Source of the DNA: Abditibacterium sp.
Lineage (GTDB): Bacteria > Armatimonadota > Abditibacteriia > Abditibacteriales > Abditibacteriaceae
Length of the DNA: 64,000 nt
Assembly: GCA_965199495.1 (NCBI GenBank)
Contig: CBDASK010000003.1
Location: 736,001 to 800,000, forward strand
Direction of reading: 5' to 3'
Below are positions 36 to 63,306 of the stretch, one piece after another (position 1 is the stretch's first letter; each line of letters opens with the position of its first letter). Under the pieces are notes generated by a model. It was not told the DNA's origin. It saw only the letters and a list, made by a program, of their open reading frames with translations, and made no database searches. Made by a program: the position numbers and the translations under genes.

Positions 36-1040
36 ATGGTCGCCTCCCCTAACTCTCCCAAACGTTCGCTCAAGCAACGCACTTCGTTTTTCGACGCGCG
101 TTTCGGCGACGGATTATTCTACTGGTCAACGCTCGGCTTCGCTTTTGTGGTGCTTTTGCTGGTGGCGTGGCTGGGCTGGCAACTCTACTCTGCCGCCGCG
201 CCTTCGGTTCACAAATTCGGCCTCAACTTCCTGACTTCATCAGTCTGGAAATCCGCCGACGATCCCAAAGCGCCCGACACCTACGGCGCGTGGCCCTATA
301 TTTATGGCACGCTGATGTCGTCGTTTTTGGCTTTGCTTTTGGCGGTGCCGGTTGGCCTTGGCACGGCGATATTTTTAGCCGAACTCGCGCCCAAATCCAT
401 CCGCACGCCGCTTTCGTTTTTAGTCGAATTGCTGGCGGCGGTTCCCAGCGTTGTCTATGGATTGTGGGGCCGATTGGTGATGATCCCGTTTCTGTTACCA
501 TTGCAAGAGTGGCTTTACAATTCGGGCAGCAAAGCGCCGCTCGTTGGCAAGTTGTTCAGTTCGTCGCCCCAGGGCGGGCAGTCCATGTTGATGGGCGGCT
601 TGATTTTGGCGATTATGATTTTGCCGTTTATCACGGCGGTTTCGCGCGAAGTCATTAAAGCCGTGCCGCCCACGCAGCGCGAGGCGGCGTTTGGCTTGGG
701 CGCGACGCACTGGGAAGCGATCAAAGGCCCGGTTTTGCGGGCCGCGCGTTCGGGCATTATCGGCGCGATTATTCTGGGTTTGGCGCGCGCACTGGGCGAA
801 ACGATGGCGATTACGATGGTGATTGGCAACGGCGATAACGCCAACATTTCACTGCTTTCGCCCGCCAACACGATTTCATCGAAATTAGCGTTGCAATTCG
901 CCGAAGCCGACGGTTTGCAATACACCGCGCTGATGTATCTGGCCTTAGTTCTATTCGGTATCACCATTATCGTCAACGCGTTCGCCCGCTTGTTAATTTG
1001 GAACATGGCGCGCTCCAACGGAGGTAGCGCGAGAGCGTAA
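36..1040 (+). CDS. pstC: phosphate ABC transporter permease PstC
   Basis: Multi-TM protein with ELLAAVPSVVYGLWG and LGLARALGETMA motifs; first of the pstC-A-B-phoU genes; ATG at 36 chosen because the upstream ORF extension lies in the repeat. Confidence 0.95.
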   Translation: MVASPNSPKRSLKQRTSFFDARFGDGLFYWSTLGFAFVVLLLVAWLGWQLYSAAAPSVHKFGLNFLTSSVWKSADDPKAPDTYGAWPYIYGTLMSSFLALLLAVPVGLGTAIFLAELAPKSIRTPLSFLVELLAAVPSVVYGLWGRLVMIPFLLPLQEWLYNSGSKAPLVGKLFSSSPQGGQSMLMGGLILAIMILPFITAVSREVIKAVPPTQREAAFGLGATHWEAIKGPVLRAARSGIIGAIILGLARALGETMAITMVIGNGDNANISLLSPANTISSKLALQFAEADGLQYTALMYLALVLFGITIIVNAFARLLIWNMARSNGGSARA

Positions 1041-1043
1041 ATC

Positions 1044-1952
1044 ATGGCGTCATTTTCTCCCACCGCGCCCGATGCGCGCCCAATATCCTCCGGCGTGGCT
1101 CCTTTGCCGCCGATGTCGCGTTCCCTCGTGCGGCGCCGCAAAACATCGAATATCGCGATGCAATCGTTGTGTGGATTCGCCACATTTTTGGCGATTATCC
1201 CGCTGATTTTGGTGATTTCCTATATCGTCGTCAAAGGCTTGGCGGTGATGAACCTCGACTTTTTCACGCAGGTGCAAAAGCCCGCCAGCGACATGGGCGG
1301 CGGCATGAAACACTCCATCGTCGGCACGCTGATGATGGTCGGTCTGGCGTGCGGCATCGGTTTGCCGTTTGGCATCCTGGGCGGCATTTATCTGTCCGAG
1401 TTCGGCGGCAATCGCATGGGTTTCGCGATCCGATTCGCGGCGGATGTGCTGAACGGCGTGCCCTCAATTATCATCGGTTTGTTCGTCTACGCCATCGCGG
1501 TTTTACCATTCAAGCATTTTTCGGCGTGGGCGGGCGGTCTGGCGCTGGGCATCATGATGATTCCCACGATTATGCGCACGACCGAGGAAATCGTGCGTTT
1601 GGTGCCGATGTCTTTGCGCGAAGGCGCTTTGGCGTTGGGCGATACGCGTTGGCATTCGGTGTTTGTAATTGTGCTGGCCTCGGCCAAAGGCGGCGTCGTG
1701 ACGGGAGTGTTGCTGGCGATTGCCCGTATTTCGGGCGAGACCGCGCCGCTTTTGTTCACCGCGCTTTCCAACAACTTCTACAACACCGACCCGTCGCGCC
1801 CGACGGCATCGCTGCCCGTCACGATTTATCAGTTCGCGACTTCGCCTTCGGACAACTGGCAAGCCCTCGCGTGGGGTGGCGCCTTGGTTCTGGTTGCGCT
1901 GATTTTCGTCTTGTCCATCGCCGCACGCTACTTCACGCGCTCGAAAAATTGA
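1044..1952 (+). CDS. pstA: phosphate ABC transporter permease PstA
   Basis: GVPSIIIGLF, LREGALALG and ARISGETAPLL motifs; operon position. Confidence 0.95.
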   Translation: MASFSPTAPDARPISSGVAPLPPMSRSLVRRRKTSNIAMQSLCGFATFLAIIPLILVISYIVVKGLAVMNLDFFTQVQKPASDMGGGMKHSIVGTLMMVGLACGIGLPFGILGGIYLSEFGGNRMGFAIRFAADVLNGVPSIIIGLFVYAIAVLPFKHFSAWAGGLALGIMMIPTIMRTTEEIVRLVPMSLREGALALGDTRWHSVFVIVLASAKGGVVTGVLLAIARISGETAPLLFTALSNNFYNTDPSRPTASLPVTIYQFATSPSDNWQALAWGGALVLVALIFVLSIAARYFTRSKN

Positions 1953-2004
1953 ACAAATTCGGTTAAAATGAAACGCGAGCCATCAACTCGCCCAATGGTT
2001 CAAC

Positions 2005-2934
2005 ATGACTTTTTCTACCGCGACTTCGGTCGCAAATCCCGGCGCAACGCCCGCAACTCCAATGGCCGAATCTCCTCCCAAACGTTCCACCGATGGCCCT
2101 GCCGATGCCAACGCACAAGCAGCCACCGCCGAGCATCTGCTGCCCAAACCCGCGCACTCGGCGCCGCTTGATCTTGACGCTCCCGTCAAAATGTCGGCGC
2201 GCAACGTTGATCTGTTTTACGGCCCGAAACAGGCGCTCAAAAAAGTCGGTGCCGACTTCACCGAGCGCTCGATTACGGCGCTCATCGGCCCGTCGGGTTG
2301 CGGCAAATCCACGTTTTTGCGCTGTCTCAATCGCATGAACGATTTGATTGACGGTTGCAAAATTTCCGGCGAAGTTTGTCTGGACGGCGAGAACATCTAC
2401 CAACGCGGCATTGACGTGGTGCAACTGCGCCAGCGCGTCGGCATGGTTTTCCAAAAACCCAACCCGTTCCCGATGTCCATTTGGGACAACATCGCTTACG
2501 GCCCACGATTGCGCGGCATCAGGAACAAAAGCGATTTGAACCAAATCGTCGAAGAATCGCTGATCGGCGCCGCATTGTGGAACGAAGTCAAAGACGATTT
2601 GAAGAAATCCGCGCTGGGCTTATCAGGCGGACAGCAGCAGCGATTGTGCATCGCGCGCACGATGGCCACGCGCCCCGAAGTGATTTTGATGGACGAGCCA
2701 TGTTCAGCGCTCGACCCGATTTCGACGCTCAAAGTCGAAGAATTGATGCGCGAACTGCGCGCGCATTACACGCTGATTATTGTGACGCACAACATGCAGC
2801 AGGCCGCGCGTTGCTCGGATCGAACCGCGTTCTTTTTGCTGGGCGAATTGGTCGAAATTGACGCCTCGGCCAAGATGTTCACCACGCCAACCGACAAACG
2901 CACCGAAGATTACATTACCGGACGCTTTGGATAA
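2005..2934 (+). CDS. pstB: phosphate ABC transporter ATP-binding protein PstB
   Basis: GPSGCGKST Walker [27 protein letters not shown]-terminal [10 protein letters not shown]. Confidence 0.97.
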
Positions 2935-2939
2935 GTTAT

Positions 2940-3038
2940 GGGAACAAGGGACAAGTGTCAGGGAACAAGAGAAAGTATTCTCGCACTTCGATTTTCTTTC
3001 CTTGTTCCTTTTCCCTTGCTCCTTGCTCCTTGTCCCTT
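2940..3038. repeat. short heptamer-like inverted repeat cluster
   Basis: gggaacaagggacaag... is answered by ...cttgttcc...cttgctccttgctccttgtccct. Confidence 0.55.
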
Positions 3039-61914: not shown

Positions 61915-61948
61915 AAAACGCCGCCGTGGCTGTGTGTCACGGCGGCGT
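61915..61948 (-). terminator. intrinsic terminator
   Basis: acgccgccgtg-N9-cacggcggcgt followed by TTT on the minus strand. Confidence 0.7.
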
Positions 61949-62108
61949 CTTTGTTGAATTTTGATTTGACGAAACGGTGAACGCGCCTTTCAATCCCATC
62001 ATTTCAATCCCCTAAGGCTCGACTAAAGTAGGATTCACGAGTTCAGAACTTGCTTTCACCCCGTCCAGAATTGTCAGTGCTTATGCGGGATCAATTCCTC
62101 ACCGGATT
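61915..62108 (-). ncRNA. candidate small RNA or attenuated leader (unassigned family)
   Basis: Promoter at 62115-62143, terminator at 61915-61948, no long ORF, closing stem CGGTGA/TCACCG. Confidence 0.45.
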
Positions 62109-62114
62109 GAGTAA

Positions 62115-62143
62115 AGTATAGTTTCGCTCCCAAGCGACGGCAA
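62115..62143 (-). promoter_or_regulatory. sigma70-like promoter
   Basis: Minus strand TTGCCG-N17-TATACT. Confidence 0.6.
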
Positions 62144-62235
62144 GTAAAATATAATGGGAATTTCGGGGGTTTTGCGGCCCCAGCACAAACAATTTGTCGC
62201 CGCGTTTTCCGATATTTCTCTCGTCTTTATTCCTC

Positions 62236-63306
62236 ATGCGCGCTCACAATTTCAACGCTGGCCCCGCCGCCCTGCCCGCCCCAGTTTTAGAACAAGTCCA
62301 AGCCGAACTGCTCGATTTCGCGGAGAGCGGAATGTCCATCATGGAGCTGAGCCATCGCTCCAAAACCTTCGATGCGCAACGCGAGCGCGCCGAACATGGT
62401 TTGCGCGCCTTGCTCGGTTTAAACGACGATTTCGACGTTTTGTTTTTGCAGGGCGGCGCCACCTTGCAATTTTCAATGGCGCCGATGAACCTGCTCGCCG
62501 ATAGCAGCCACGCCGACTACCTGACTTCTGGCACATGGGGCGTTAAAGCCCTCGCCGAAGCGCGCAAAGTTGGTGACGTGCGCGAAGCCGCGTCGAGCAA
62601 AAGCGCGCAGTTTCGCCGCGTGCCCCACGAATTCGAGTTGGACGCAAGCGCCAAATACGTTCATTTGACCAGCAACGAAACCATCGAAGGCGTGCAGTGG
62701 CACGTTTTGCCCGACACCAACGGCGTGCCGATTGTCGCCGATATGTCGTCGGATATTTTGTCGCAACCGCTCGATATGAGCCGTTTCGGTTTGATTTATG
62801 CGGGCGCGCAAAAGAACATCGGCCCGTCGGGCGTGACCGTTGTTATTGTGCGCAAAGATTGGGTTGTGCCGCATCCCGATTTACCGATTATGCTCGATTA
62901 CGCGACGCACGCCAAAAACGATTCGCTTTACAATACGCCCAATACGTTCGGCATTTACGTCATCGGTTTGGTCTGCGAATGGATCGAAAAATTGGGCGGA
63001 CTTTCGGGCATGAAAGCGCGCAACGCCGAAAAAGTCGCGCTACTTTACGACGCGATTGACGCGTCGGATTTTTACAGCGGTTTCGCCGACAAAGGCAGTC
63101 GCTCGCCCATGAACGTGACGTTTCGTTTGCCGACCGAAGAATTGGAAGCCAAATTCGCTACCGAATCGGTCAAAGCGAACATGATCGGTTTGAAGGGCCA
63201 TCGCAGCGTCGGCGGCATCCGCGCCTCGATTTATAACGCGGTCGAGTTAAATTCGGTTAGAGCGTTAGCTGATTTCATGCGCGAATTCGAGCGAGCGAAC
63301 GGGTAA
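62236..63306 (+). CDS. serC: phosphoserine aminotransferase
   Basis: NFNAGPAALP, MELSHRS, TSNETIEG, YAGAQKNIGP, GHRSVGGIRASIYN. Confidence 0.97.
   Translation: MRAHNFNAGPAALPAPVLEQVQAELLDFAESGMSIMELSHRSKTFDAQRERAEHGLRALLGLNDDFDVLFLQGGATLQFSMAPMNLLADSSHADYLTSGTWGVKALAEARKVGDVREAASSKSAQFRRVPHEFELDASAKYVHLTSNETIEGVQWHVLPDTNGVPIVADMSSDILSQPLDMSRFGLIYAGAQKNIGPSGVTVVIVRKDWVVPHPDLPIMLDYATHAKNDSLYNTPNTFGIYVIGLVCEWIEKLGGLSGMKARNAEKVALLYDAIDASDFYSGFADKGSRSPMNVTFRLPTEELEAKFATESVKANMIGLKGHRSVGGIRASIYNAVELNSVRALADFMREFERANG

Follow-up and report, generated by a model that had tools for sequence, protein, structure and literature searches.

A strand-specifically spaced octamer of one Abditibacterium clade is a candidate DNA-uptake signal

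The DNA analyzed here is a 64,000-nucleotide stretch of an Abditibacterium genome (the window; positions 736,001 to 800,000 of contig CBDASK010000003.1, assembly GCA_965199495.1), in which one octamer, CGTGGCTG, recurs on both strands. The results showed that CGTGGCTG is a real, clade-specific signal at the DNA level that is either selected or driven. Its core, G-V-CGTGGCT, is strict and its flanks are soft; the word entered genes and spacers alike through point substitutions and is maintained there. Judged from sequence comparisons, it is probably a DNA-uptake signal, that is, a self-recognition word of one Abditibacterium clade spread by transformation, and we put it forward as a candidate for this role. 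A literature search with thin coverage of subscription papers returned no report on CGTGGCTG or on uptake signals in Abditibacteriota, and the signal has apparently not been described so far. Below, G000 is the genome that holds the window (4.81 Mb in three contigs, with the window at C3:736001-800000), and G001 to G042 are the related genomes compared; G000, G004, and G011 carry CGTGGCTG.

An earlier note on the window had listed 44 copies of the word, and all 44 positions and strands proved exact. The plus strand holds 21 copies of 8 bp each, spanning 166 to 61932 (at 166, 3627, 7127, 9858, 14230, 16572, 23177, 25069, 26297, 26662, 29342, 31088, 32349, 36006, 38917, 41303, 47613, 50848, 53581, 60209, and 61925). 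The minus strand holds 23 copies, read as CAGCCACG on the plus strand and spanning 4899 to 62512 (at 4899, 5337, 8761, 18496, 23578, 24580, 29773, 32000, 32880, 35243, 37218, 40987, 44141, 46679, 48772, 48942, 49705, 51781, 52801, 56974, 58898, 61068, and 62505). In 100 dinucleotide shuffles of the window, the mean was 2.22 copies and the maximum was 6. Further sites limited to the 7-bp core (CGTGGCT/AGCCACG), which had been put at about 20, came to 24 on both strands over positions 1 to 64000, giving 68 7-mers in all. The reading frames named in the note (xVA, xWL, SH, AAT, and QPR) were also the main ones genome-wide. The supposedly frequent extension to gcgcCGTGGCTGca was overstated, being exact in only 2 of the 44 copies; CGCCGTGGCTG was found in 15 of them. 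According to our own gene calls, 42 of the 44 copies lie inside genes.

Genome-wide, CGTGGCTG occurred 3,091 times in G000 (1,530 copies on the plus strand and 1,561 on the minus strand; 0.65 per kb). It was the top 8-mer of the genome under both order-2 and order-4 Markov nulls, with 252 and 436 copies expected, respectively. Genes were called with our own dicodon caller (4,055 genes, 84% coding), which often placed the start codon so that the gene was too short; 92% of the copies fell within coding sequence. The coding copies numbered 2,844, compared with 271 ± 15 (maximum, 303) in 20 synonymous-codon shuffles, an enrichment of about 10-fold that bore out the DNA-level signal proposed in the earlier note and ruled out codon or peptide bias as its cause. 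Each of the six frames was enriched (3.5- to 25-fold), AAT and AVAA being the commonest peptides encoded across the word, and no sense/antisense bias remained after codon control (9.8- versus 11.4-fold). Measured against six codon shuffles, the full word was resolved as c-G-V-CGTGGCT-g-c-t, and CGNCGTGGCTG was enriched 32-fold. Words with a single change within GTGGCT stood at 0.2- to 2.1-fold, and those with a change in the flanks were still enriched 3- to 12-fold.

The replichores of G000 were defined by the KOPS (FtsK orienting polar sequences) motif, GGGNAGGG, of which 299 of 380 copies were oriented (0.787). The corresponding fraction was 0.517 for CGTGGCTG (1,594/3,083; p 0.06) and 0.498 for a longer form of the word (1,452/2,913). 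The leading-strand skew that, according to the earlier note, would have pointed to Chi or KOPS was thus missing, which ruled out either as the identity of CGTGGCTG. The Chi motif, GCTGGTGG, was rare and unskewed in G000. Some parts of the genome were poor in the word. A 138-kb island (C3:1119000-1257000) with restriction- and defence-like genes, as read from the translations, held 31 copies and ends beside a gene that we take, from its N terminus, to be comM-like. The two small contigs held 2 copies in 25 kb and 6 in 65 kb (8 in 89 kb), and the lowest decile of GC content at third codon positions had 0.46 per kb. The competence genes held 10 copies compared with 5, a difference that reached only p 0.03.

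The distribution of the word was checked in 41 relatives and in all 28 genomes of the order. It was confined to three of the 28 genomes, G000, G004 (3,503 copies), and G011 (2,676 copies), and none of the other relatives had it. These three form one clade in a midpoint-rooted ComEC tree (support 100/100; stem, 0.47). G011 has the dialect of G000, and G004 favours g-G-A-CGTGGCT-G-g-T-g-t; in G004, 77 of 231 sampled sites belonged to close inverted pairs, and 75 of the 77 were located outside orthologous coding sequence. In aligned genes, the G000 sites were found to have arisen by substitution. With the expectation taken from a codon matrix, 109 of 152 G000 sites were retained in G011, compared with 37 expected at 87% nucleotide identity, about 3-fold above neutral; counted from G011, 109 of 139 sites were common with G000, compared with 32.5 expected. 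Retention in G004 was 37 of 167 sites, compared with 21 expected at 80% identity. Sites turn over at this depth, since the raw G004 retention of 22% was below the 30% found for all 7-mers. In samples of 26 to 110 kb from G001 to G003, G005 to G010, G012, G013, G016, and G023, no dispersed word was detected, although rarer ones could be missed at this sample size.

The spacing of CGTGGCTG depended on the strand. In G000, same-strand pairs were at 0.12 to 0.44 of expectation at 25 to 600 bp and recovered by about 1.3 kb, whereas opposite-strand pairs were at 0.64 to 1.29 over the same range, with a 4- to 5-fold excess at 12 to 25 bp. Within genes, 60 inverted but only 2 direct pairs were found at 8 to 30 bp, compared with about 23 expected for each. 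In a label permutation test, for which inverted pairs closer than 60 bp were dropped beforehand, 87 of 393 pairs at 60 to 400 bp were on the same strand, compared with 191 ± 9 (0 of 200 permutations). The next distance bins gave 182 of 557 (272 expected) and 322 of 804 (391 expected), and there was no effect beyond 1.3 kb. The samples of G004 (16/52 versus 25.6) and G011 (12/44 versus 21.6) behaved alike at 60 to 600 bp, and among the G011-specific sites close to kept sites, 2 were on the same strand and 12 on the opposite one. Six control 7-mers clustered rather than repelled each other. Among the 120 commonest 8-, 9-, and 10-mers, only CGTGGCTG and its overlapping flanks were depleted, and the others clustered (median ratio, 1.26 to 1.5), which ruled out a generic avoidance of close direct repeats. 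Because same-strand copies avoid each other over about 1 kb and opposite-strand copies are independent, the reader of CGTGGCTG is polar. The benefit of the word saturates within about 1 kb and on one strand only, and its reader recognizes the word in a single orientation and works over about 1 kb.

As a control, we examined an established uptake word, the uptake signal sequence (USS) of Pasteurellaceae, in USS-rich metagenome loci (L121 to L192). These had been chosen by an inverted USS pair, with the taxon inferred from the motif and a GC content of 35 to 46%; 45 of 72 loci (674 kb) were kept, and 27 were dropped as short, USS poor, or redundant. At 60 to 400 bp, 13 of 51 pairs were on the same strand, compared with 24.9 ± 3.5 (2 of 2,000 permutations). 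No same-strand effect was seen at 400 to 1,000 bp, and opposite-strand copies showed no repulsion. Forty control words of 91 tested in the same loci were at 0.87 to 1.41 of expectation. Thus, a genuine uptake sequence shows the same polar signature as CGTGGCTG, at a shorter range. The literature passages on USS that we consulted contain no statement of same-strand repulsion.

Polar spacing over about 1 kb would also suit a directional machine inside the cell. According to this rival explanation, which we consider unlikely, CGTGGCTG is an intracellular polar signal, either for a Chi-like translocating enzyme of repair or defence that needs it equally on both strands, since breaks or incoming ends can arise anywhere, or for a strand-specific reader of single-stranded DNA in recombination, and the cell's own DNA would be left intact or directed to repair. 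A Dna2-like PD-(D/E)XK nuclease-superfamily 1 helicase (G000 C3:4111365-4115630) was limited, within the genus, to the three genomes that carry the word, and the strong avoidance of palindromic hexamers in the genus is a sign of restriction pressure. However, the G011 copy of the gene (L431) lacks the N-terminal half and carries one stop and a frameshift, yet G011 keeps CGTGGCTG; as a pseudogene there, the enzyme was weakened as a candidate reader. Distant homologs were also present in CGTGGCTG-negative G016 and G017. RecC was found in 0 of 5 genomes, and neither of the two PDDEXK_1 matches in G000 was AddA/AddB sized in an operon, the AddA/AddB models not having been searched separately. Since USS, a true uptake sequence, has the same polar spacing, polarity requires no intracellular model. 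The Dna2-like protein itself is a stand-alone protein of 1,421 amino acids, with a PD-(D/E)XK nuclease and an Upf1/Dna2-type helicase, from a widespread unnamed family (381 homologs).

A second rival, which we judge rather improbable, makes CGTGGCTG a word like the highly iterated palindrome HIP1 of cyanobacteria, tied to a methyltransferase whose mark on one strand of an asymmetric site would tell mismatch repair the strands apart or would serve as a methylation-dependent self tag. Independent, even series on the two strands would be expected from such a mark too. The all-or-none core (single mismatches in GTGGCT at 0.2 to 2.1 of expectation), the presence of mutL in G000, and the palindromic GTAC-core words of sister genera, which resemble HIP1 with its methylase sites, are consistent with it. 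Passages of one study describe HIP1 as conserved and quasi-periodic and as increasing transformation in a way that depends on methylation (10.64898/2026.06.24.733823). Against this, no clade-confined methyltransferase was detected in a search with five Pfam families, of which two were run on 13 genomes and three on only 5, so that unusual methylases may have been missed. Of the G000 enzymes, the three that have close orthologs in both G004 and G011 loci had orthologs in word-negative genomes too. The graded flanks and the flank dialect are easier to reconcile with a binding protein than with a methylase site. A Type ISP/IIG-like methylase was considered and rejected, being fragmented in G004 and interrupted in G011, with orthologs in word-negative genomes. 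Its gene lies at G000 C3:368041-371163, and in the counterparts in G011 (C237) and G004 (C8:767000-771000) a match to a C5-methylase replaces the middle part. Among the options offered in the earlier note, an uptake sequence was thus the best supported, and a HIP1-like signal failed, the word not being palindromic and no methylase among those compared being confined to the clade.

The sister genera had words of their own. In samples of 51 to 76 kb, unrelated hyperabundant words were found, namely, TCGAGTACTCGA in G020, GAGTACTC in G022, AAGTACTT in G014, and AGTACGGTCGA in G017 (L434 and L445 to L447). Of the 72 sites in G017, 48 were in 22-bp palindromic pairs, mostly beyond long open reading frames (ORFs). 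RAGTACTY occurred 2,695 to 4,371 times in the whole genomes of G014, G018, G020, G022, G024, and G042 (controls, 54 to 255) and 0 to 117 times in G015, G019, G021, and G041. AGTAC-core words were evenly spaced, at 0.7 to 1.2 per kb, in seven genomes of two sister genera, as HIP1-like palindromes outside cyanobacteria.

Even spacing would likewise suit a site for chromosome architecture. A third rival, to which we give very little credence, comprises such an architectural or a transcription-related binding site, or a selfish element of the REP (repetitive extragenic palindromic) type that seeded CGTGGCTG. Many paired G004 copies read GTAGGACGTGGCTGGTGTC and have similar spacers, and a GTAG start is a tag typical of REPs. 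However, the copies are 92% coding in G000, arise by substitution, and have no sense/antisense bias, and a nonpolar architectural protein would not give rise to strand-specific repulsion. No cluster of the word was found at 8 loci of Y1 transposases in G004 or at 6 in G000, whereas other GTAG repeats clustered at two of the G004 loci and one of the G000 loci; an origin from REPs and their associated transposases was therefore unsupported.

G000 has a full competence set (ComEC, ComEA, DprA, PilB/T/C/D, and pilins). No clade-specific domain was found in ComEC, ComEA, or DprA. The type IV pilus operon that includes the candidate receptor (C3:861101-880963; PilB, PilT, PilC, prepilin peptidase, and minor pilins) lies 61 to 81 kb past the window end. 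In G000, and also in G004 and G011, it ends in two paralogous tandem genes for tip pilins of about 1,300 amino acids (C3:872853-876728 and 876977-880963 in G000). One tip-pilin gene followed by an unrelated ORF was found at this locus in 8 of the 10 other genomes (G002, G003, G006 to G010, and G012); in G005 the contig stops within the gene, and in G001 no such gene turned up. Among 64 homologs, the second copies group as a single clade of 12 (SH support 100, FastTree) that is nested in diverse first copies; between G000 and G011, identity is 88% for the second copy and 58% for the first. Seven further records on long contigs (P0020, P0024, P0025, P0027, P0040, P0041, and P0047) have one tip pilin of the clade type and no partner of the second-copy type. 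As for DNA binding by the candidate reader, only a weak charge trend was seen (+0.1% versus -0.4% and -1.7%).

A first structure model of the tip pilin, from 14 sequences, gave a pLDDT (predicted local distance difference test) of 48.5 and no usable match. The AlphaFold2 model of residues 131 to 1328 of the second copy had a pLDDT of 85.9 and a pTM (predicted template modelling score) of 0.87. Its longest alignment was with Thermus ComZ (6QVI; Z, 9.8; root mean square deviation, 3.8; 254 residues aligned, over model residues 38 to 1191). Thus, the tip pilin is predicted to be a pilin fold with an inserted beta-solenoid, similar to ComZ. Passages on ComZ describe a pilin with an inserted beta-solenoid that comes nearest to an ice-binding protein, binds DNA, and is essential for transformation (PMC6561018). 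Foldseek with the good model returned only tailspikes with TM scores below 0.1, and ComZ was not among its matches; sequence searches of PDB and two Atlas searches gave only leads below 0.9. At least two ComZ-like genes were present in 8 of 10 word-positive genomes (two by inference from fragments), including 5 of 7 of the sister genera. This imperfect match between words and gene number is a lead rather than a test, because kin are not independent and only two or three events are involved. A second, distant minor-pilin cluster with a ComZ-like gene of its own was observed at G012 C1:5988001-6004000 (L321) and in G002 and G010, which make up one word-negative clade.

If CGTGGCTG is an uptake signal, fragments bearing it would be preferentially taken up or passed to recombination. 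Biased transformation, which passages of PMC7811141, PMC2817400, and PMC1939737 propose for USS, would then spread new sites unless a site in the same orientation already covers the stretch, and close inverted pairs would be favoured for serving both orientations. A tentative candidate for the reader is the ComZ-like pilin at the type IV pilus tip, tandemly duplicated and with the more conserved second copy. The reader might be locked in one orientation while scanning about 1 kb, or it might license a single strand; either kind of reader would account for the same-strand repulsion, the surplus of inverted pairs, and the palindromes among the words of relatives. In a bolder version, which we regard as doubtful, Abditibacteriaceae would have evolved sequence-specific uptake at least twice, with unrelated words (polar CGTGGCT in one clade and palindromic AGTAC words in two sister genera), each time through duplication of a ComZ-like tip pilin and specialization of one copy. 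Reading of the words would be confined to one orientation and extend over about 1 kb; this rule would also hold for USS, would lead to inverted pairs and a drift to HIP1-like palindromes, and would join HIP1 and the USS and DNA uptake sequences (DUS) as one class.

Several observations weigh against the uptake reading or its candidate reader. ComEC, ComEA, and DprA were found in 13/13, 12/13, and 13/13 genomes, respectively, word-negative ones included. Intergenic copies in G000 numbered 234 (0.31 per kb, compared with 0.70 in genes), the opposite of USS and DUS, which passages of PMC2817400 state to be underrepresented in genes. Terminator-type pairs were rare in G000: of 141 close inverted pairs, 27 lay between genes or at a gene boundary. 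Repair and replication genes were not enriched (15 copies versus 13.9 in 10 genes picked out by familiar peptide patterns, a small set in which one gene is probably a false match and recA, mutS, and others were missed). As for the tip pilin, ice-binding beta-solenoids matched its model equally well (Z, 10.1 to 10.2; 188 to 204 residues aligned). Since these match as high as ComZ, the tip pilin may serve ice or surface adhesion. Passages on Thermus describe DNA uptake without apparent sequence preference (PMC6561018). A second, distant copy was present in 4 of 13 sampled genomes that are word negative (G002, G010, G012, and, weakly, G003), and G041 has three ComZ-like copies and neither known word. 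Among word-positive genomes, a single locus is present in G014, and G018, which is 63% complete, yielded none. The duplication is, moreover, a single event, and many other changes fall on the same long stem. Finally, close inverted USS pairs gave no more uptake than single sites in Haemophilus influenzae, according to passages of PMC7811141. Because such pairs gave no gain in uptake, the polarity may arise after the first binding, in transport or recombination.

Other features of the window were also considered. The copy at 61925 had been described as part of a terminator hairpin. A GC-rich hairpin followed by a T run is present (61915 to 61950, plus strand), as read from the sequence rather than with a folding tool, but this is a single copy, the sole clearly intergenic one of the window, between divergently transcribed genes (59971-61764, minus strand, and 62236-63306, plus strand), and thus not a gene-end inverted pair. 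A comF-like gene of the competence/recombination family (13980 to 14735, plus strand; TIGR00201, E 6e-28, and NF008616, E 1e-35, below curated cutoffs) holds the copy at 14230 in the ORF as listed, and our own caller placed its start later. Tad/Flp-type pilus genes on the minus strand (37843 to 46498) include CpaB, a secretin, and a response-regulator/ParA-type, TadZ-like gene, with other genes interspersed. The comF and pilus genes had been said to fit competence; their support is weak, as competence genes also occur in word-negative genomes and the pilus genes of the window are Tad type, distinct from the type IV operon with the candidate receptor. Amid the latter, a 649-amino-acid ORF (42274 to 44223) was matched by neither NCBIfam nor Pfam and had a coding score out of the ordinary. 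No Rfam family matched the window. GTAG-type REP-like repeats lie at 2, 7404/7480, 23251/23360, 25119/25227, and 53651/53734; their family (ending in GGTGTCTCTAC) has 157 copies on C3, mostly intergenic inverted doublets, and is unrelated to CGTGGCTG.

Elsewhere in G000, a CRISPR-like array of 131 repeats ending ATTGAAAT starts at C3:2766488. The single 16S match (C3:1860971-1862487) is followed by protein-coding ORFs with no 23S next door, which suggests unlinked rRNA genes, 23S not having been searched for. Palindrome avoidance was genus-wide (whole G000 and samples of 12 other members), with 17 of 63 hexamers below 0.15 of expectation in G000; CGGCCG and CTCGAG were at 0.01, CCGCGG and TTCGAA at 0.02, and CTAG at 0.04.

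Passages of 10.1101/2025.10.24.684340 describe sequence-specific uptake signals for two proteobacterial families. If the uptake reading is true, CGTGGCTG would add a third phylum, one in which sister lineages differ in having the word, dialects exist, and the candidate receptor has a different fold; this would allow the origin of such signals to be tested. The strand-specific spacing, which USS-rich DNA shares, constrains any account of the way uptake words are read, and cloned DNA carrying CGTGGCTG could open barely studied soil bacteria to genetics.

Among known systems, CGTGGCTG would work most like the USS of Pasteurellaceae (core AAGTGCGGT) and the DUS dialects of Neisseriaceae. These resemble it, as far as passages of PMC2817400 and PMC3630211 describe them, in being nonpalindromic, equal on both strands, present at about 1 per kb, and frame biased. 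Shared with them are also a distribution more even than random, scarcity in foreign DNA, clade dialects, inverted intergenic pairs (in G004), and same-strand repulsion (about 400 bp for USS). Unlike them, CGTGGCTG has an unrelated sequence and belongs to another phylum, is denser in genes and has few terminator pairs in G000, and shows repulsion over about 1 kb; its candidate receptor is a ComZ-like pilin of 1,300 amino acids and not ComP or the predicted ComN. HIP1 of cyanobacteria (GCGATCGC) is similar in its thousands of copies, its spread by substitution, its conservation and quasi-periodicity, and its link to transformation, but CGTGGCTG is no palindrome, and the search turned up no methylase dedicated to it; the RAGTACTY words are the closer analogues of HIP1. 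Chi with RecBCD-AddAB and KOPS with FtsK are likewise polar, nonpalindromic octamers, but they are replichore skewed and CGTGGCTG is not. With ComZ of Thermus thermophilus (6QVI; passages of PMC6561018), the tip pilin is predicted to share a pilin N terminus with an inserted beta-solenoid and a place at the end of a minor-pilin cluster, whereas it differs in its length of about 1,300 amino acids, compared with 518 in the solved chain, in its extra domains, 16% identity, and lack of a sequence-level match, and in being duplicated.

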